Shown piece after piece: positions 35,058-46,395 of a DNA stretch of 64,000 nucleotides. Position 1 is the stretch's first letter, and the number at the start of each line of letters is the position of its first letter. The stretch comes from Promethearchaeota archaeon (GTDB taxonomy: Archaea > Asgardarchaeota > Lokiarchaeia > Sigyniarchaeales > SOKP01), in NCBI GenBank assembly GCA_019058365.1, contig JAHPZE010000003.1, positions 96,001-160,000 on the forward strand, in the 5' to 3' direction. A program made the translations under genes and the position numbers. The notes below the pieces were generated by a model. The model worked only from the letters and a program-made list of their open reading frames with translations. It was not told the DNA's origin and ran no database searches.

Positions 35058-35585
35058 ATGCAGAGCTCATGGATTTTTAAAGTAATTGTTGCGGGTGCAG
35101 GGGGCGTTGGAAAAACAGCGATGATTACAAGGTATTGTACAGGAAAATTCGAGGAGGGATATAAAATGACAATAGGAGCAGGATTTCATACGAAAGCCGA
35201 AATGCTCGACACTGGAGAAGCCGTTAAAATGCAGTTATGGGATTTTGCCGGTGAAAAACGGTTCCGTGAACTCTTACCTGATTATTGCAAAGGTGCAAGT
35301 GGAGCATTTATATGTTTTGATATAAGTGATTATGATACTTTCAGAGAAATACCTGAATGGTTAAGGATAATTCGTCAAAAAGCCGGGTTTGTTCCCATAA
35401 TTCTTTTGGGAATGAAATGGGATCTTCCAGGACATGAAGTAGATTATGAAATTGCGAATGATTATGCTATTAAAGCGAAATGTAATCAATGCGTATTCTG
35501 TTCCTCAAAAGATAATATAAATATTAATGAATCTTTTCAAGCTATGGCAAAATGGCTGATCTATTACGCAGCCCAAGCAGATTGA
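35058..35585 (+). CDS. Rab/Ras-like small GTPase
   Basis: GAGGVGKT, TIG, WDFAGE, MKWD (G4 variant), SSK. Confidence 0.9.
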   Translation: MQSSWIFKVIVAGAGGVGKTAMITRYCTGKFEEGYKMTIGAGFHTKAEMLDTGEAVKMQLWDFAGEKRFRELLPDYCKGASGAFICFDISDYDTFREIPEWLRIIRQKAGFVPIILLGMKWDLPGHEVDYEIANDYAIKAKCNQCVFCSSKDNININESFQAMAKWLIYYAAQAD

Positions 35586-35589
35586 TTCT
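35557..35589 (+). repeat. 33-bp direct repeat, copy 1 (3' end of GTPase gene)
   Basis: TGATCTATTACGCAGCCCAAGCAGATTGATTCT; 31/33 identical to 37445-37477. Confidence 0.85.
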
Positions 35590-35693
35590 CAAATCTTCAG
35601 ATACCGTAAAATTAACTAATCCAAGCGTATTCCTAATATCACTGCCTATACTAATTTTAATAAGATGAGTAAGGAATATTGTTTTTAATAGTG

Positions 35694-36227
35694 TTAGCCA
35701 ATATTATATCTATTTAGAATCATTCTTGTTATTGTATTATACATCTCCTCCACATTTTCTCCCGGTTTTAAAGAAATCTTTATCGATGAGGATATATTAT
35801 AATCTTCTTTAAATTTCACTATTTGCTCTTCGAATACGTCTCGATTCTCCTCTAAATCCAATTTAATTCCTACTAATAGATTTGGAGTTCCCTCTGTTTT
35901 ACGTTCTTTTATCAATTTACTCCATTCAGTTAATTTATTTAGAGTTTCAGTATTAGTAATATCATAAATTAATAATACTCCATTAGCACCCCCAATAGCT
36001 AATTCAAAAACTTTTTTAAATTGATCTTCCAAACTCCATCCCCATACCATTAGTCTTATAAATTTTCCTTCAATCTCTACATCTTTAGTATAAAAATTAA
36101 TACCTATTGTCGATTTAGTATCATCATCAATTAAAGATCTAGTAAATTTACTTGTTACTAATTTTTCTACTTTATTATCAGCAAACATAAAAACTTTAAA
36201 TATAAGATCAGGTTTCTCAAAATCCAT
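35694..36227 (-). CDS. Degenerate Rab-like GTPase (P-loop lost)
   Basis: FKV, STIG..F..K, GANG.LL.YDIT and KLDL retained; G1 reads ADNKVEK, G3 reads WGWSLE. Confidence 0.75.
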   Translation of the reverse strand: MDFEKPDLIFKVFMFADNKVEKLVTSKFTRSLIDDDTKSTIGINFYTKDVEIEGKFIRLMVWGWSLEDQFKKVFELAIGGANGVLLIYDITNTETLNKLTEWSKLIKERKTEGTPNLLVGIKLDLEENRDVFEEQIVKFKEDYNISSSIKISLKPGENVEEMYNTITRMILNRYNIG

Positions 36228-38248: not shown

Positions 38249-41200
38249 TTACAACTTATCTTTAGATATTAAATTTGGATATATTGGTTCAAATTTCGAT
38301 GTGAATACCTTTGGTTTTTTCCAACACTTTTTTTTTTCATTCCATTTAAGATTTTTCAAGGGATTATAGAATTTTAGTAAATCTTCATCTGCATAAATCG
38401 ATTTAATTAGTTCATTACCATCAACTAAATCATTTAATATCAGATAGTCTTTAACCTCTAAATATTCGAATAATAAGTCAAATAATCGTTCAAATTCACT
38501 AATTTCGCATTTAGGAAAATAAATTTTAATCATTAGCCCCGTTGGGAATCTTTTTTCTTGATCAAATCCATAAATGAAATATTCTCCCGTAATTTCAGAG
38601 ATATGTACTAAATTAAAAAAACTAAAAACTTTTACAAGTGATTTAATCATTTCTTTTTTCAAATTCGGTACAATAATGTAAACTTTATTATGAAGGTCTA
38701 AATTCTTTAAAGACAAATAGGGGAAAATTAAATTTTTTCTTAATAGACTAGTGATGTGGCTTATTGTCAACACTTTTTTTGTGATTAAATAGGATTTGAT
38801 ATCTATTGATTGTCTATTATAAATTTGAGAAAGAGATTCAAATTCAGGAGATTCAGGACCAAAATAAGAAGAAATTGATTTGTTGCCGACTTCATATTCC
38901 TTAATAAATAAATTTTCTATTTGATATTTTGGATTGAAAAGTATAGTTTGCATGTGCATTTTAAATCTGTCTTTGTCATAATTCCAACCTTCTAGGGTAA
39001 GGTTATTATCAAATTGAATAATATTATAAACTTTTTTTATAAAAAATCCACAGTATTCTCGTATTATATTTTTCGATCTTGCTAACCAGTGGATATAACT
39101 TAGTTGAGGTGAATCATAAGGCATAATATAATTTATGAAAAGAGAATTAGAATTATCTATCGAGGTGGGATAGTTAATTTTTTGAAAAGTATTAAGGAGG
39201 AGAAGTTTAAAATCGATCTCGTTCATATCTGTTGGATAAAGAAATAAATAATATTGTCCCAGTCCAAAATATTCAAAAGCAGGAATAAATCTTATAGATT
39301 TAATAAAATTTGTGAAAAAATATTCTTCCTTAGCATTTTTAAATTTCTCAATATTTATTAGATACTCTTTAAGGTTTAAATGAAAATCTAACAACCGGTT
39401 TAAATTTTTGTCATTGTAATCACAATTTTCACTCATACCACGGTCGTTAACTTTTTTCACTAAATCTAAGATGTTTTCTTCATTCGACCAAAAATTTTTT
39501 TGATTTCTATTAATCTCTTCTTCACGATATTCTAACCCACTCCTAAAAATACTTTTTACATATAGAAAATATTGTTCATAGAGATCTTTCGTATAAAAGA
39601 AGGTTTTACTATCAAAATCATATAAGTGTTTGCTAGATAATGCTTTAATCCTACCAGTCCATAAAAAAAACTTTCCATAGAGTAAATTTTCTTTAAAAAT
39701 GTTATAAAGAATTGAGAATAATTGTCTCTTTTCTTTTTTAGTCAAATAAGGAGTTGAAATCTCTACATATATTAGATTTTTATCAGAAATTATCTCTTTA
39801 CTATGATCTATAGTGATTCTAGGGAAAAATCTTTTCATTTTAATAAGAAAATTTTGAGTTTCTTGAGAATTGATTAAGATTAATTGGAGAAAGTCATTTA
39901 CATATTCTTCGATGTTAATTGTGTTAATTAAAAGCGGATTGATTATTGGGGGTTCATTCTCCAATAATTTATCTAATATACTAGTTACTTCTTGGCTGGT
40001 TATTTGATAAAGTTTGAATTTTTCATAGAATTTTTCTAATTTTTCCAATTTTATTTGGTAAATATTATCTACTACTGTTTTATCGATAAATGTCTTTTTA
40101 ATCGTACTTAGGTTGAATAATTTCAAATTATAAAAAATGTTAATTAAGTCATGGAAATTTATGTAATTCTCAACCATCATTTTAAAATCCTCTTGAGACT
40201 TAAAGTAAGCTGAAATAAGATCGCTAGAATCAAGATTTTTTAAGTGACTGCTGTTAAATATGATATTATCTTCAATTAAATGAGAATGATATTGATTATC
40301 CAAAATGTCATGAAATTCAATAAGTGTTTTAACTTGAGGGTAGCGGGTTATAATTTTTTTTATAAAATCCAAAACTTGTAAATACTCCTCTAACTTCTTT
40401 TTTATATAGAAAAATCCAAATTTTTTATTTTCATTTAGAAATTCGAGAAATTTTAACTGTAGATCTTTTGAATCATAAAATTTATTTAATTTATCTTTTA
40501 AATCTATAATTAGAGTACGTTGAGTAATAATCTCATCAACCAAATCTGATTTTAAAGTCGCTAATGTTTCAGTCCTTTTTTCAAATCCAAAACCAAAAAC
40601 AGAAATAAAGCGAATTCTATCAATTATTAAAAATTGAAGAAGAGAAAGTTCAGGATTAGAAAAATCAGAACTAAAGTCAATTTGAAATTCGATCTCAAAT
40701 TTCTTATCATAACTACGATGATTAGGGTTTATTATTTTGTATTTTTGTGAATATTCTCTTAAATAATTTAAATTGAGTAGATGATTTTCAAATGTACGAA
40801 GCAAACAATAGCTCTTAGTTATAAAATTAGAACTTTTCAATCTCTTGATAAATTTAATAAAATCATCTAAGTAAGGTCTTGGGAGGATCACATAACCACT
40901 AAGTTCAACCGAAAAACTATTAAGTGAAGTCTTAGTTGCAATAAAGAATGGAGACCCTTCAATAATACTAAATATCTTAGATTTTTTTAATATTGGATTA
41001 AATCGTAGAAATACTGCTATAACACATACATTTATTGCATTCCAATTCAATTGATAAGAAGGTGCGATAAAACTGTACTTTTTGATCCAATCCATGTTTT
41101 TGATAAATTTCCTCAAACTTAAATCAGATTCGAGCTCTTGATTCTCTTTAAATTTCTGAAAATATTTTTTATAGCTTGATAGATCCTTATAATTCTTCAC

Positions 41201-41899
41201 TCGATAAAATATTCTTATTAAACATCTAATTGTTTCAATGATCTCATCATTAGTTATCGATTTTGAAATATAGTTAGCAAATTCTTGAAGGAGGATCTCA
41301 TAGAAATCATCCATTTTATTGGTAATTAATGATTCATTTTTTAATAGATAATGAAAAAAGAATCGTTTAGGAGGGAGGAAAGTATCTTTTTCTTGTTGTA
41401 GAAAAAATTTTTCCAAACGATCAAATATAATTAATCGATTGAATCCCCCTGATAAGAGATCATATTGCTCAAGTTTTCCTCTAATCAACTTTCTCCATTC
41501 ATTCAGCGCAATAGAGTTTGAAAGATCAGTTAATATTATTTGGTTGAGAACAAGTTGAATTGATTCATATTCTTTTAAACTATCTGAAATAAAACAGTTA
41601 TATATTTCACGGAGAATAATAAAGGAGATGAACTTTAGATAATCTTTATGCATTTCTATAATTAAATTTTTATTTTGAGTATACCTTTTTACTCCAATAT
41701 TAAAAATATCTTCAGTTCTTAATTGTTTTGAAATTTTTTTTTTATTAATTATTATTTTCACATTTTTTTGAAATGGTTCCATTTCTAAGGATAATTTAGT
41801 CTCATTAAGAAGACGTTGGAATAGTGAATTCAGATCTTTCTCATTGATTTTCTCTAAAGATTTTTCTAATACTCTAAGATCTAGCTTAAATATTTTCAT
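38249..41899 (-). CDS. Large 1216-aa protein, putative multi-module Lrp/AsnC-like regulator
   Basis: Long intact ORF; four loosely repeated segments like the Lrp HTH-to-RAM junction (e.g. IRFIPAFEYFGLGQYYLF, NLIFPYLSLKNLDL). The CDS is certain; the function is inferred. Confidence 0.55.
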   Translation of the reverse strand: MKIFKLDLRVLEKSLEKINEKDLNSLFQRLLNETKLSLEMEPFQKNVKIIINKKKISKQLRTEDIFNIGVKRYTQNKNLIIEMHKDYLKFISFIILREIYNCFISDSLKEYESIQLVLNQIILTDLSNSIALNEWRKLIRGKLEQYDLLSGGFNRLIIFDRLEKFFLQQEKDTFLPPKRFFFHYLLKNESLITNKMDDFYEILLQEFANYISKSITNDEIIETIRCLIRIFYRVKNYKDLSSYKKYFQKFKENQELESDLSLRKFIKNMDWIKKYSFIAPSYQLNWNAINVCVIAVFLRFNPILKKSKIFSIIEGSPFFIATKTSLNSFSVELSGYVILPRPYLDDFIKFIKRLKSSNFITKSYCLLRTFENHLLNLNYLREYSQKYKIINPNHRSYDKKFEIEFQIDFSSDFSNPELSLLQFLIIDRIRFISVFGFGFEKRTETLATLKSDLVDEIITQRTLIIDLKDKLNKFYDSKDLQLKFLEFLNENKKFGFFYIKKKLEEYLQVLDFIKKIITRYPQVKTLIEFHDILDNQYHSHLIEDNIIFNSSHLKNLDSSDLISAYFKSQEDFKMMVENYINFHDLINIFYNLKLFNLSTIKKTFIDKTVVDNIYQIKLEKLEKFYEKFKLYQITSQEVTSILDKLLENEPPIINPLLINTINIEEYVNDFLQLILINSQETQNFLIKMKRFFPRITIDHSKEIISDKNLIYVEISTPYLTKKEKRQLFSILYNIFKENLLYGKFFLWTGRIKALSSKHLYDFDSKTFFYTKDLYEQYFLYVKSIFRSGLEYREEEINRNQKNFWSNEENILDLVKKVNDRGMSENCDYNDKNLNRLLDFHLNLKEYLINIEKFKNAKEEYFFTNFIKSIRFIPAFEYFGLGQYYLFLYPTDMNEIDFKLLLLNTFQKINYPTSIDNSNSLFINYIMPYDSPQLSYIHWLARSKNIIREYCGFFIKKVYNIIQFDNNLTLEGWNYDKDRFKMHMQTILFNPKYQIENLFIKEYEVGNKSISSYFGPESPEFESLSQIYNRQSIDIKSYLITKKVLTISHITSLLRKNLIFPYLSLKNLDLHNKVYIIVPNLKKEMIKSLVKVFSFFNLVHISEITGEYFIYGFDQEKRFPTGLMIKIYFPKCEISEFERLFDLLFEYLEVKDYLILNDLVDGNELIKSIYADEDLLKFYNPLKNLKWNEKKKCWKKPKVFTSKFEPIYPNLISKDKL

Positions 41900-41988
41900 T
41901 ATGCGTATATAAGATTAGTCAAATAAATTTTAAGAGATTAATATTTAATTTTTTTCATTTTAATATTTAATAATCTTTTTTCTGGGAA

Positions 41989-41996
41989 TTTATATA
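41989..41996 (+). promoter_or_regulatory. TATA-like box upstream of peptide gene 1
   Basis: GGAATTTATATA, conserved at the same offset in the paralogous unit (44058-44065). Confidence 0.5.
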
Positions 41997-42047
41997 TTTA
42001 AATTTTAAAAAATTCTTAAGAAAATTTAGTTTTCTTGGTGTATTCAT

Positions 42048-42158
42048 TTGAAAATTAGAAATAAAAATTCAATATTATTAGCTTTATTGACCAGTATTTC
42101 AGCTTTTTTTCATATGTCCATCGGGTATGCATGGTCTGGTGGATATGGGACGCCTTAA
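42048..42158 (+). CDS. 36-aa putative precursor peptide 1 (MKIRNKNSILLALLTSISAFFHMSIGYAWSGGYGTP); not in ORF track
   Basis: TTG start with GGTG SD 7 nt upstream; paralogous to 44116-44230; just upstream of the radical SAM gene. Confidence 0.75.
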   Translation: MKIRNKNSILLALLTSISAFFHMSIGYAWSGGYGTP

Positions 42159-42371
42159 ATATGTTTAAGCTAAAAAATGCTATAAAGCTAACATATATTT
42201 TTATTTTTTTATAGTAATTTAAGAGGAAATGCACCTTTACTTAGAGTAATTATTTCATGTTTAGTCTATTACAGATTATTTTTCAATTATTTCTTTTATA
42301 CTAGAAAAAGAATTCATTTGGTTTATAAATCTAAACTTTCATAATAATACATCCACAGATTTAGCATAAAT

Positions 42372-43952
42372 ATGAAAGCTCAAAATTTTAAAATTCTTTA
42401 TATTCATCCTGAAGAATCCAAAAATCGACCTTATTTCCTTTCAGGTATATTACGAATCTCAAATTATTTAAATTCAAGAAAACACTCACTAAATTATAAT
42501 ATTGAAGAAGAATATTTAGACTTAAGATTTGAACGATTACCTTCATTCTCATTCAAAAATATTCATAATTATAGAAAAAAACTAAAAAAATTATTATTTA
42601 AAACATACGATGATTTCAACTTTAATTTAGTAGCAATATCTTGCTATAGTTCATTTTATTACCTTAACACCTTAGAAATTGCTTTCATTATAAAATATTC
42701 AATTAATCCTGATTGTATAATAGTTGTTGGTGGACCTCACCCATCAATCATTCCAAATGATTTCAATCCTATCAATATTCCAAAATTCTTTTATGAGTTC
42801 TACCCTGATAATATAATCCCATTTAATTATATCATAAGAGAAGAAGCTGAAATTGGTTTTTTTAAATTAATTTGTAGTTTATTGAAGAATAATTCAGTGG
42901 AAAGGTCATCTTCAACGCATAAATTTAGAACCCTTACATCAGATTTAATAATAGACTTAGACAAAATTCCTGTAATAGATTTTTCTCTTTATGAAAAATA
43001 TAAAGAAAAAATTAATAAATTAGGTTTTATTAATATTGATTTCTGTAGGGGTTGTATGTTTCATTGTTCATTTTGCATAAATTCAACAGATTTTATGAAT
43101 TGTTATAAAAAAGTTAGATTAAAAAATATCAATTTATGCATAGAAGAAATAAAAGTTGTTAATGATACTAAATGGTTATCTATAAATGATATTCATATAA
43201 TGGATCCAATATTTTTTCCTAATAGAAGTTACAGAAATAAATTTTACTTAAAACTAAAACAATTTAAACACGAAACTGATGGTTTTCCAGATAAGATTCG
43301 TGTTTTTGATCGGATAGATTTATGTTCAGAAAAAGATTTAGAAAATTACAAAGATTTAAACATTATTCCAGAAATTGGTCTTGAATCAATTTCTAAAACC
43401 ACCTTAACTAATATGAATAAATTAAAAACTCTAGATGATAAAAGTATTATTAATTATACTAATAAAGTAAGAAAAATTATTGAGATTTCTAATAATTTAA
43501 AGCATGAAGTTAATTTTAATTACATATTTGGTTTTCCAGGATCATTGAAAGATGAATATAATGATTTTGATAATTTCTTCTTTAAGAATAATCAAAGAAT
43601 TCACTCATTAATGGAGAATTTTAATATAAATATAGTTTGGACCTTATATGCAGCTATACCAAGATCTAAAATCTATAATGAATGCGAATCTAAATTTGGA
43701 GCAAAAATTTTTTATAAGAATTGGTGGAGAATGCCGAAAGATAATCAAAGGGAGCTATGTAAATTAATAAAACCCAGTTCTAATTTAACTTTTGCTGAAA
43801 CAATTAATTTAGCAGAAAAATATTTTAAAAAAATATATTTTTTTCAACAAAAAAGAGGAAACAGATTTTATTCTAAGAACTATTACTCATTTTATAAAAG
43901 TCACCTTAAGCAATTAAGAGATGAATATTCAGATATTCTCTTCACTCAATAG
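42372..43952 (+). CDS. Cobalamin-binding (class B-type) radical SAM enzyme
   Basis: N-terminal B12-binding-like domain (LVAISC.SS..., IVVGGPHPS), RGCMFHCSFC (CxxxCxxC), IGLES, IFGFPG. Confidence 0.9.
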   Translation: MKAQNFKILYIHPEESKNRPYFLSGILRISNYLNSRKHSLNYNIEEEYLDLRFERLPSFSFKNIHNYRKKLKKLLFKTYDDFNFNLVAISCYSSFYYLNTLEIAFIIKYSINPDCIIVVGGPHPSIIPNDFNPINIPKFFYEFYPDNIIPFNYIIREEAEIGFFKLICSLLKNNSVERSSSTHKFRTLTSDLIIDLDKIPVIDFSLYEKYKEKINKLGFINIDFCRGCMFHCSFCINSTDFMNCYKKVRLKNINLCIEEIKVVNDTKWLSINDIHIMDPIFFPNRSYRNKFYLKLKQFKHETDGFPDKIRVFDRIDLCSEKDLENYKDLNIIPEIGLESISKTTLTNMNKLKTLDDKSIINYTNKVRKIIEISNNLKHEVNFNYIFGFPGSLKDEYNDFDNFFFKNNQRIHSLMENFNINIVWTLYAAIPRSKIYNECESKFGAKIFYKNWWRMPKDNQRELCKLIKPSSNLTFAETINLAEKYFKKIYFFQQKRGNRFYSKNYYSFYKSHLKQLRDEYSDILFTQ

Positions 43953-44115
43953 AACTAACAAAAATTTCGATTGCCTTTTAAATTAGTGATTTTTATAGGA
44001 AGAGATTCAAATTATTTCAAGATCTATCAATCTTAGTTGCTTCTCTTTTTCTTGGAATTTATATAATTAAGTTTTGAAAAAAATTAAAGAAAATTTAATA
44101 TTTAGGTGTTTTTAT

Positions 44116-44230
44116 ATGAAAATTCGTTATTAAATTTTCAATTTTATTAGCTTTATTGACAGCGATTTCAGTTTGGCTTCGAATGGTGATATTAGGATTT
44201 GCAGTTAATGCTGGTGAAGAAGGTCTATAA
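44116..44230 (+). pseudogene. Putative precursor peptide 2 with +1 frameshift (corrected: MKIRYKFSILLALLTAISVWLRMVILGFAVNAGEEGL, 37 aa)
   Basis: ATG with AGGTG SD; one extra base near 44127-44131 gives an early TAA; remainder aligns with peptide 1. Confidence 0.7.
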
Positions 44231-44612
44231 ATAAATTTGTATTAAGATAAAGCTAATAATTAATTTCCATTTCTATATTTTTTACTTTAAAAAATACTTA
44301 TTCCTTATTTATACTATTGAAAAATAGTAATATAATTAAACCTTTTTTAAAAAAGAGTGCACAAATTCTTTCCCTCAATTTAATCTAATTTAAATTTAGA
44401 TTGATTATGTATTTACTCAAATTTAAAGCACACAAAATTTCAAGGGGTGCTGTGCAAAATGAAAAATTCTGTTAAAATATGTACATTTATGTCAAATGCA
44501 ATCTTTAATATGCCTTTAGAAGCCTCCCTCTCTTCACTTAAATTTTCACACAAACATTTATAAGGAAAACTCCTTCACCTCTGATCTTAAAATTAAATAA
44601 AAGTGATATTAT

Positions 44613-44804
44613 ATGAAAAATGAAATGATTAAATATAAATGTCCTAGATGCCATGAAAAAAAAATAATCGACTATGGGAAAATAATTGAATGTGTTAAAT
44701 GTCAATTAGAGTTCTATAAAAGAGATATTGAAACTCTAAATAGAAGTAATATCTTAGCAATTTCAGAATTAAATGATTTTATAAGGATTTTAATAGAAAG
44801 TTAA
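44613..44804 (+). CDS. Small zinc-ribbon protein
   Basis: CPRC...CVKC; GTGAT SD-like motif upstream. Confidence 0.65.
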   Translation: MKNEMIKYKCPRCHEKKIIDYGKIIECVKCQLEFYKRDIETLNRSNILAISELNDFIRILIES

Positions 44805-44872: not shown

Positions 44873-44977
44873 TGGTGCTCCCGCCGGGATTTGAACCCGG
44901 GTCACCAGGGTGAAGGCCTAGCATTCAAGTATTTATTCAAGTATAATTATTGCTTGGCCGGACTACACTACGGGAGC
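44873..44977 (-). tRNA. tRNA-Glu (TTC), 27-nt intron at 24/25 (44924-44950); C at position 33; CCA encoded
   Basis: GCTCCCG/CGGGAGC acceptor, CTAGG-CCTTCAC-CCTGG anticodon arm, BHB helix CAAG/CTTG. Confidence 0.9.
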
Positions 44978-45102: not shown

Positions 45103-45220
45103 TGCGGGAAGGGAGATTTGAACTCCCGAACTCCTACGAGAATGGATTCTAAGTCCACCGCCTATGGTCAGCCATCGATCAAGCGCCTTACAGCCTTTGA
45201 CCAGACTTGGCAATTCCCGC
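45103..45220 (-). tRNA. tRNA-Leu (TAG), 33-nt intron at 21/22 (45164-45196)
   Basis: Class II cloverleaf, GTGGA-CTTAGAA-TCCAT, BHB helix GGTC/GACC. Confidence 0.92.
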
Positions 45221-45396: not shown

Positions 45397-46395
45397 ATGA
45401 GTGTAAGAGAGTCCTTAATAAAACATTTAACATCTATTCTCCGAGCATCAGAAGGTACATTTTTAGTTGTGTTATGTGATCAGAATGGTCTTTCAATAGC
45501 AAAAATAGGGAGAAAGAGTGAGATCGACTTAAACCCAAATCAAATCACAAGTTTAGCTTCAGCAGCTTTTTCTGCTAGCGAAGAAAATTGGGAAGATTTA
45601 AATATTAAAGACCAAGTTATTTCATTTTCATACTTTGATAAAGTTTGTTTAATAACAATTAGAATTAATGAAACACTTCTAACTATAGTGCATGATTACC
45701 ATAAAGATTGGCCTCTAGATGCAGATAATTTAGCCACCGCCATGTATTATTTGAAACAAAAATTAGGTGAATTTTTTGGAAGTGGAGATCAATCAGAGAG
45801 AGATGTTGAAATTTTTTGCGATAAAGTTCGTAGTGCGATTTATCTTTTTGGAATGGGTTCTGAAGTTCCCTTCGTATCTTATAAGCCCGAAAAATTTGAA
45901 CAATCATATTTGTTACCTTCAATAAGTACAATTTTAGATTCCATTCAGAATCCCATTTTTATAAGATATGCTCTAGTTAACCCTTCTGGTTTAACTTTGG
46001 ATGCTAGAGAAGTAAGTGGCCAAAATTTACCTATAACTATTGAGGCTTTCTCTGCAAATGCGAATGCAGCTTTTCAAAAAATGAAAGAGGAATCTCGGGG
46101 AAGTTCTATAGGAGATTTATTATGCTATATTACAATTTCTGGGGAGAATACTGAAAGTTTCTATGGGCTTATTACTTGCCCGTCAGCAAAAATAAAATTC
46201 TCCACAATGGATAAAACATCAAATATAGAAGATATTTCTTTTATTGGTTTATTTACATTAACATATGGGGGAATACCAGTTATCTGTGAATCAAGAAACA
46301 TAATAAGTTCAATTATGCAAATATTTGGTGAAGAACACATAACTATGAACTTTATAAAATCTGTAAATGTTCTTACAAGTTTTAAGTATGAATAG
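45397..46395 (+). CDS. Tandem roadblock/LC7-domain protein
   Basis: Two repeats of the pattern ..D.NGL.I.... and AS.A...F (CDQNGLSIA; VNPSGLTLD). Confidence 0.7.
   Translation: MSVRESLIKHLTSILRASEGTFLVVLCDQNGLSIAKIGRKSEIDLNPNQITSLASAAFSASEENWEDLNIKDQVISFSYFDKVCLITIRINETLLTIVHDYHKDWPLDADNLATAMYYLKQKLGEFFGSGDQSERDVEIFCDKVRSAIYLFGMGSEVPFVSYKPEKFEQSYLLPSISTILDSIQNPIFIRYALVNPSGLTLDAREVSGQNLPITIEAFSANANAAFQKMKEESRGSSIGDLLCYITISGENTESFYGLITCPSAKIKFSTMDKTSNIEDISFIGLFTLTYGGIPVICESRNIISSIMQIFGEEHITMNFIKSVNVLTSFKYE

Follow-up and report, generated by a model that had tools for sequence, protein, structure and literature searches.

The region considered here lies in a window of 64,000 nucleotides (the whole stretch of DNA analysed, positions 96,001 to 160,000 of contig JAHPZE010000003.1 from a Promethearchaeota archaeon) and comprises two copies of a short putative precursor-peptide gene, a cobalamin-dependent (B12) radical S-adenosylmethionine (SAM) enzyme gene located between them, and a divergent gene encoding a giant protein of 1216 residues. 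In the best reading this is a cassette for secreted micro-peptide signals, optionally joined by a C-methylase of the type found in pathways for peptides made on ribosomes and modified after translation (RiPPs), and we assign to this reading a probability of about 0.5. Gene anatomy, selection, co-occurrence and folds were observed, and from them we infer cleavage, export, methylation, receptor binding and signalling. A previous interpretation made by a model from the DNA letters, referred to below as the sequence-only reading, had centred on the radical SAM gene and missed the giant gene, which is the constant partner of the peptides.

The precursor genes and their family

A unit of about 230 nt is duplicated on both sides of the radical SAM gene, an open reading frame (ORF) of 526 codons, and the two copies, 2,069 nt apart, share 79% identity over 130 nt (E 2e-23), as expected from the duplication proposed in the sequence-only reading. 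Each copy displays a BRE/TATA-like box (BRE, B recognition element) about 59 nt upstream of the precursor start codon, a GGTG Shine-Dalgarno (SD) motif, a short ORF, a 9-nt downstream motif and a T-tract, that is, a full small transcription unit, and the arrangement of promoter-type element, SD, ORF and downstream motif described in that reading was recovered at both. In copy 1, oriented like copy 2 on the forward strand, sequence inspection places the 12-nt promoter element at 41985..41996 and the SD-like GGTG, retained in relatives, at 42037..42040. The intact precursor gene 1 (42048..42158) encodes 36 residues from a TTG start, precisely as previously translated, with a basic n-region, a hydrophobic h-region, a Gly-x-Ala site and an 8-residue core. 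The predicted mature core (42132..42155), delimited by the (-3,-1) rule, would be an octapeptide starting with Trp, rich in Gly and ending in Pro, and it is followed by the conserved 9-nt motif (42183-42191) and T-tract (together 42183..42215), which may act as a terminator.

The second copy carries, by sequence inspection, the promoter element at 44054..44065, the GGTG at 44105 and the downstream motif at 44248..44256, but its precursor gene (44116..44230) ends after five codons at a TAA (44131-44133). Dropping any single base of 44119-44131 opens a 37-residue frame, so that the one-base correction suggested in the sequence-only reading is indeed needed, and an intact 38-residue ortholog occupies the same position in the closest relative (genome G027, locus L039). 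Copy 2 is a true +1 frameshift pseudogene, because the extra base is present in two assemblies and the core-coding part (44204-44227) terminates in Leu where relatives carry Pro. An assembly error was ruled out, since contigs from two runs share the extra base in gap-free alignment; both runs belong to one study, and one of them may be the source of the window assembly. A search of the 4.7-Mb genome for the precursor family returned only these two copies, with no third copy of the unit evident among the genome matches inspected. A look-up of RNA runs listed none that contains the stretch. An Rfam scan of the unit found no structured RNA, and a sigma-70 promoter scan of the region, with a model ill-suited to archaea, stayed at chance level. 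A six-codon ORF preceded by a purine-rich SD-like run (42228-42248, forward strand) lies between precursor 1 and the radical SAM gene; it has about 11 codons in G027 and at locus L031 and is absent at L033, and it may merely mirror DNA similarity.

More than 40 intact signal-type precursor homologues were gathered, which display coding-type substitutions and in-frame gaps, and orthologous loci carry two to four tandem copies. Among 14 close precursors the differences by codon position are 1109/899/1706, mostly at position 3, and the single-base differences comprise 713 synonymous versus 421 non-synonymous changes, where the neutral share of synonymous changes would be 0.25. The last six codons show the strongest selection (196 synonymous versus 38 not). 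These observations support the view that the short ORFs are real precursor genes under purifying selection, and provide the coding-type conservation in relatives which the sequence-only reading had named as a check. That the ORFs arose by chance within a duplicated promoter region might be suggested by the frameshift in copy 2 and by the AT-rich DNA, but this explanation has next to no probability in view of the more than 40 intact homologues with their substitutions and in-frame gaps, and the pattern in the 14 close precursors already refutes it.

Conservation is concentrated in the core. In 30 aligned precursors of the family the only column without variation holds a core Gly, and Pro is at least 90% conserved at the terminal position, so that the "two unrelated tails" of the sequence-only reading did not hold; family-wide, the core has an aromatic or hydrophobic first residue, is rich in Gly and ends in Pro. 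Core 1 is identical in G027, with synonymous codon changes, and a TATA-like box lies 40-70 nt upstream in 40 of 43 family precursors. By inspection and hydropathy, the leader has the anatomy of a signal peptide (basic n-region, h-region, small residues kept at -3 and -1), in agreement with the earlier proposal. Its hydrophobic stretch of about 19 residues, with a peak 12-residue hydropathy of 2.0-3.3, could be that of an uncleaved single-pass membrane micro-protein whose tail is merely a short exposed end. We consider this very improbable, given that 58 loci keep the core alone or with a short non-hydrophobic leader, that small residues are retained at -3 and -1, and that selection peaks in the last six codons. 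Across the family the leader is full, shortened or absent while the core is conserved, which suggests that the leader may be an export device and not a fixed enzyme handle.

Annotations miss the family because its genes are too short for gene callers, and in Pfam and NCBIfam scans the peptides match no known family. A second precursor subfamily is strongly conserved and has a 12-residue core containing Cys/Glu. Many leaderless cores begin with Met-Pro, and at one locus (L335) an M24 peptidase (Xaa-Pro type) is encoded between the radical SAM and the giant gene. Many precursor mini-genes are orphans that have neither a giant gene nor an enzyme within 1.5 kb, at L233 (G014:C84), L236, L238-L241, L250 and L342-L369; the one at L233 occupies the syntenic site of the window, and such mini-genes look as if they were mobile as self-contained units.

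The giant partner protein

The gene encoding the 1216-residue protein, a candidate peptide receptor or regulator (38249..41899, reverse strand), starts 148 nt from precursor 1 and is divergent from it. Within the family 109 of 135 genomes carry it; among other families of the class, 26 genomes were covered and none does. Micro-ORFs with Gly/Pro tails occur in 76 of 124 gaps beside it (61%), versus 9 of 102 other gaps and 72 of 1019 gaps genome-wide (7-9%), by a criterion drawn from the same data. The giant gene is the constant cis partner of the precursors; no peptide was found at 24 of 110 giant-gene loci, some of them truncated by contig ends. Two single-contig genomes of family f2 (G044 and G055) yielded no giant gene and no member of the second precursor subfamily.

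Pfam and NCBIfam scans returned no match for the giant protein. Its structural model (predicted local distance difference test, pLDDT, 88) comprises an N-terminal domain resembling zincins and M1 aminopeptidases, a winged helix and ferredoxin-fold domains of the Lrp/AsnC type. The best fold match is NirDL (Z 13.0, root-mean-square deviation 5.1, 299 aligned positions, residues about 218-783), and the zincin and winged-helix matches are weak (Z 5-7). The modelled order of a winged helix followed by a ferredoxin-like effector domain is that of Lrp/AsnC regulators, with DNA binding predicted, and a weak HTH_AsnC lead was obtained from Atlas (score 0.80). The HExxH zinc ligands are intact in none of 78 giant proteins, both zinc-binding His residues being missing in all, and Arg97-Glu98 is conserved. 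No tetratricopeptide repeat (TPR) protein appeared among the listed fold matches, in a search that barely covered the second half of the protein. A complex prediction with precursor 1 and the first 955 residues of the model scored 0.00 and, having no controls, counts neither way. From the model, the protein would be a peptide-binding pseudo-peptidase fused to a DNA-binding Lrp part.

An optional radical SAM enzyme

The enzyme gene (42372..43952, forward strand) encodes a class B radical SAM protein of 526 residues, and a TATA-like box at 42322..42329, found by inspection, probably provides it with a promoter of its own. The B12-binding and Radical_SAM matches in Pfam are weak and below cut-off, the top NCBIfam match is ApyD (41.8 bits against a cut-off of 750), and the MgmA model scores 19.4 against 360. 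The cluster cysteines Cys228/232/235 (43053-43076) form an intact CxxxCxxC motif, invariant in 50 homologues, and the model (pLDDT 92.7) displays a class B fold with a B12-binding domain and a radical SAM barrel. The cobalamin dependence asserted in the sequence-only reading thus agrees with the Pfam matches, the motif and the fold. In Foldseek the closest folds are MgmA/QCMT and TsrM, followed by TokK and OxsB, at 13-15% identity, and a sequence search against solved structures gave no match. Neither the model nor the Pfam scan revealed a RiPP recognition element (RRE). Scores below the family cut-offs and the lack of clear sequence kinship place the protein outside the ApyD, TsrM and MgmA/QCMT orthologs; it belongs to class B of the radical SAM enzymes and to no named family within it. 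Named homologues come from Promethearchaeota/Lokiarchaeota, the window carries an archaeal 16S rRNA gene, and a metagenome scan with the enzyme alignment yielded mostly distant B12-radical SAM proteins and two useful loci. The same clade includes a fused double B12-radical SAM protein of 1080 residues (L208, G155:C27) and adjacent gene pairs (L213 and L215), and in genus g22 the gene lies directly between tsr3 and a roadblock gene.

Elsewhere, the slot taken by this gene is filled by YcaO, by a ThiF protein resembling MccB/PaaA (its best solved relatives) or by a SAM methyltransferase, all of them typical RiPP tailoring classes, and most loci have no enzyme. The kinship to RiPP enzymes advanced in the sequence-only reading is therefore upheld in two respects, as the fold resembles peptide C-methylases and the cassette recruits other RiPP maturases. 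YcaO adjoins precursors in two further genera. The source genome has a second giant-gene locus (L051, C35:181616-188857) with a 46-residue three-cassette precursor, YcaO and a transporter of the major facilitator superfamily (MFS), and a near-identical locus is present in G005. At L380 (G069:C52, 2005-9784) the giant gene and a divergent signal-type precursor are followed by a transposase-like insertion and then YcaO, and at L352 and L354 a second-subfamily precursor lies two genes from a radical SAM gene of a different clade.

Export appears to alternate between a Sec type and an MFS type. The sequence-only reading had taken the absence of a dedicated transporter as consistent with Sec export; this stands for signal-type loci, of which only 2 of 28 have an MFS gene, whereas signal-less loci usually carry one (46 of 58; 86 classified loci in all). 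A tree-aware check of this split yielded about five independent pairs, in the expected direction or tied, the opposite occurring in 1 of 200 pairings.

The sister loci also bear on the possibility that the cassette is a biosynthetic cluster for an effector, such as an antimicrobial, metal-binding or cofactor-like peptide, in which the giant protein would be a processing enzyme or scaffold and not a receptor. NirDL, its best fold match, is an Lrp-like enzyme, the aminopeptidase-like N-terminal domain keeps the Arg-Glu pair, the combination of MccB-like ThiF, MFS and methyltransferase is reminiscent of microcin C clusters, and bufferins are Sec-exported RiPP metallophores (PMC11626156). We nevertheless find an effector cluster quite improbable: both zinc-binding His residues are missing in 78 of 78 giant proteins, tailoring enzymes are absent from most loci, no toxic or chelating group is evident in an unmodified octapeptide rich in Gly, no immunity gene was seen, and the head-to-head layout fits a regulator.

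Several observations link the radical SAM enzyme to the peptides. Of 25 genomes with the enzyme clade, 23 carry a module peptide in cis or in trans, and in the home genus all eight genomes with the clade have it in cis. The clade is found with the giant gene in several distinct branches, and pairs of enzyme and peptide exist without the giant gene (L042, L049, L204 and L336). Where clade members stand alone in other genera, the genome mostly also holds the second precursor subfamily, which outside the home genus occurs in 15 of 17 genomes with the clade versus 13 of 64 without it and lies in cis with the enzyme gene at L035, L204, L049, L337 and L261; it is likely to be a substrate in trans. 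Gly and Pro are the only residues common to all ten intact signal-type cores at radical SAM loci, a comparison made on signal-type cores, and no other conserved candidate substrate was seen in the loci.

The conserved leader with a variable core, which the sequence-only reading had taken as the recognition logic, did not withstand comparison. The 77%-identical ortholog (L031, the closest one with flanks) is accompanied by three 20-residue precursors lacking the hydrophobic stretch and by a downstream MFS gene, and orthologs of about 42% identity by leaderless ORFs of 8-10 residues and MFS. Orthologous enzymes pair with full, shortened or no leaders, and no conserved enzyme-recruiting leader/RRE logic was found; this lowers only the classic RiPP form, as leaderless RiPPs exist.

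A number of results weigh against a peptide-modifying role within a signal cassette. Of 108 giant-gene loci retrieved from GTDB genomes, only 9 hold the enzyme clade, and the search of 42 genomes in one peptide-rich genus did not detect it. Likewise, 25 of 27 signal-type loci, sampled via the giant gene, lack it, so that the unlinked leader homologues which would have counted against the sequence-only reading do in part exist. We rejected the proposition that a peptide adjoins every clade member, since about half of them have none beside them. The trans co-occurrence falls to p 0.07 in a strict set from which the genus lacking both was removed, and kin are not independent. Signal-type cores look alike at loci with and without the enzyme, and a fold likeness to MgmA and TsrM at 13-15% identity does not specify a substrate. 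In G027 one base is missing from the enzyme gene, close to a contig end and possibly in error, while four precursors are intact. Finally, the sign test on the split between signal and MFS gives p about 0.25, significance being unreachable with about five pairs.

An alternative is that the giant regulator reads the peptides in unmodified form, as with Phr, PapR or SHP, and that the radical SAM enzyme is a regulated cargo methylating some other protein, peptide, lipid or cofactor. G111, a 99% complete genome, has at the same chromosomal site three homologous precursors with near-identical cores, one of them identical to a G027 core, and no radical SAM ortholog was found anywhere in it; the enzyme gene has a TATA box of its own, many members of the clade are found alone, and streptococcal Rgg/SHP pairs control an operon whose radical SAM enzyme acts on a different peptide (PMC8092268). 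On the other hand, several unrelated peptide-tailoring classes fill the same slot, enzyme and peptide occur as pairs where the giant gene is missing, the clade co-occurs in trans with the second subfamily, and the loci offer no other conserved candidate substrate. On balance we regard unmodified signals as unlikely. The radical SAM enzyme is optional, because the G111 site and most signal-type loci are without it, and, where present, it may modify the peptide.

According to our preferred reading, a secreted signal with optional tailoring, the cassette would be family-wide in Promethearchaeota of the Loki type and combine the giant Lrp-like protein with between one and four micro-peptide genes, each self-contained, that yield a short Gly-rich core ending in Pro. 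The core would leave the cell by a cleavable Sec-type signal, as at the window locus, or by a linked MFS transporter when the precursor is leaderless or shortened, and would most likely serve as a signal that the giant protein reads, with the peptidase-like domain, devoid of zinc, binding the core and the winged-helix/Lrp part acting on DNA. The B12-radical SAM enzyme would provide an optional tailoring step in the cytoplasm, ahead of export. Under the length limits of the signal recognition particle, a 36-residue precursor would be complete in the cytoplasm before export, and a cytoplasmic enzyme could for that reason reach it. The enzyme would most likely methylate the core at an unactivated carbon. 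As a first guess we propose C-alpha methylation of Gly to D-Ala (+14 Da), because Gly and Pro alone are common to all ten intact signal-type cores at radical SAM loci, and by analogy it is the first reaction to look for, since the closest fold, MgmA/QCMT, carries it out on short peptides. For QCMT, C-alpha methylation of short peptides converts Gly to D-Ala, and a six-residue aromatic-Gly-Gly motif suffices (PMC13469106).

Other genes lie near the cassette. A 63-residue zinc-ribbon ORF (44613-44804, forward strand) is kept at the same site in L031, L033, L039 and L094, and other small zinc-ribbon ORFs adjoin several MFS genes. Just downstream of the cassette, two tRNA-like genes with introns, which on inspection resemble those for Glu and Leu (44873-44977 and 45107-45220, reverse strand), were missed by ARAGORN and give weak clan-level matches in Rfam. 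A double-roadblock protein (45397-46395, forward strand) and two Ras-like GTPases (35058-36227) are also encoded nearby.

Comparison with known systems

In a broader and more tentative version, with the odds somewhat against it, Asgard archaea would have a peptide communication of their own, in which a non-TPR intracellular receptor (dead peptidase plus Lrp) reads an octapeptide and the "dialect" shifts by changes in the core and by swaps of RiPP enzymes, namely B12-radical SAM methylation (e.g. Gly to D-Ala), YcaO, MccB-like adenylation and SAM methylation, Sec and MFS export being interchangeable. In the literature searched we found neither peptide-based signalling nor a B12-radical SAM RiPP described for Asgard archaea, and one survey refers to RiPP clusters of Asgard archaea in general terms only (PMC12144867). 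If true, this would supply ligands that can be named, a receptor candidate whose architecture is new, and four tailoring chemistries, likewise candidates, in the prokaryotes most closely related to eukaryotes. Archaeal peptide quorum sensing would become testable with synthetic octapeptides and purified proteins, free of culture, and a methylase accepting leaderless octapeptides would serve as a biocatalyst.

The cassette is like RRNPP systems in layout and like RiPP clusters in its optional enzymes, and would be a strict member of neither, because no TPR fold appeared among the matches listed for the giant protein and no conserved recognition leader was found. In the RRNPP systems of Bacillota (Rap/Phr, PlcR/PapR, AimR/AimP, Rgg/SHP) a tiny gene likewise lies beside a cytoplasmic regulator, often divergently, and encodes a signal-like leader with a C-terminal mature peptide of 8-10 residues, a likeness which here is by anatomy only. 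Cores vary between relatives there too, and a radical SAM gene can follow, as in the Rgg/SHP-controlled RaS-RiPP operons (PMC8092268). In contrast, the Asgard partner is Lrp/AsnC-like and zincin-like, the system is archaeal and has leaderless forms with MFS, and the signal-type peptide itself seems to be the target of its tailoring enzyme.

The cobalamin-dependent radical SAM methylases of RiPP pathways (TsrM, PoyB/C, ApyD) and the archaeal protein methylase MgmA/QCMT share with the Asgard enzyme the B12-binding and radical SAM fold, the CxxxCxxC motif and an adjacent short peptide gene, whereas the Asgard enzyme is only 13-15% identical, has no RRE, is optional and has orthologs across which the leader is not conserved. 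Microcin C and pantocin A (MccA-MccB-MFS, PaaA) resemble the sister loci which pair a leaderless ORF of 8-12 residues with an MccB/PaaA-like ThiF, an MFS transporter or a methyltransferase; unlike microcin C, the Asgard cores mostly end in Pro and not in Asn, a giant Lrp-like partner is present, and the window locus is without ThiF. Bufferins (PMC11626156) are bacterial, with Cys-containing cores of 60-70 residues and an MNIO enzyme, in place of a core of 8-12 residues and a B12-radical SAM enzyme. Nevertheless, their RiPP precursor leaves the cell by means of a Sec signal peptide, which modification does not require, and they consequently provide a precedent for modified, Sec-exported precursors.

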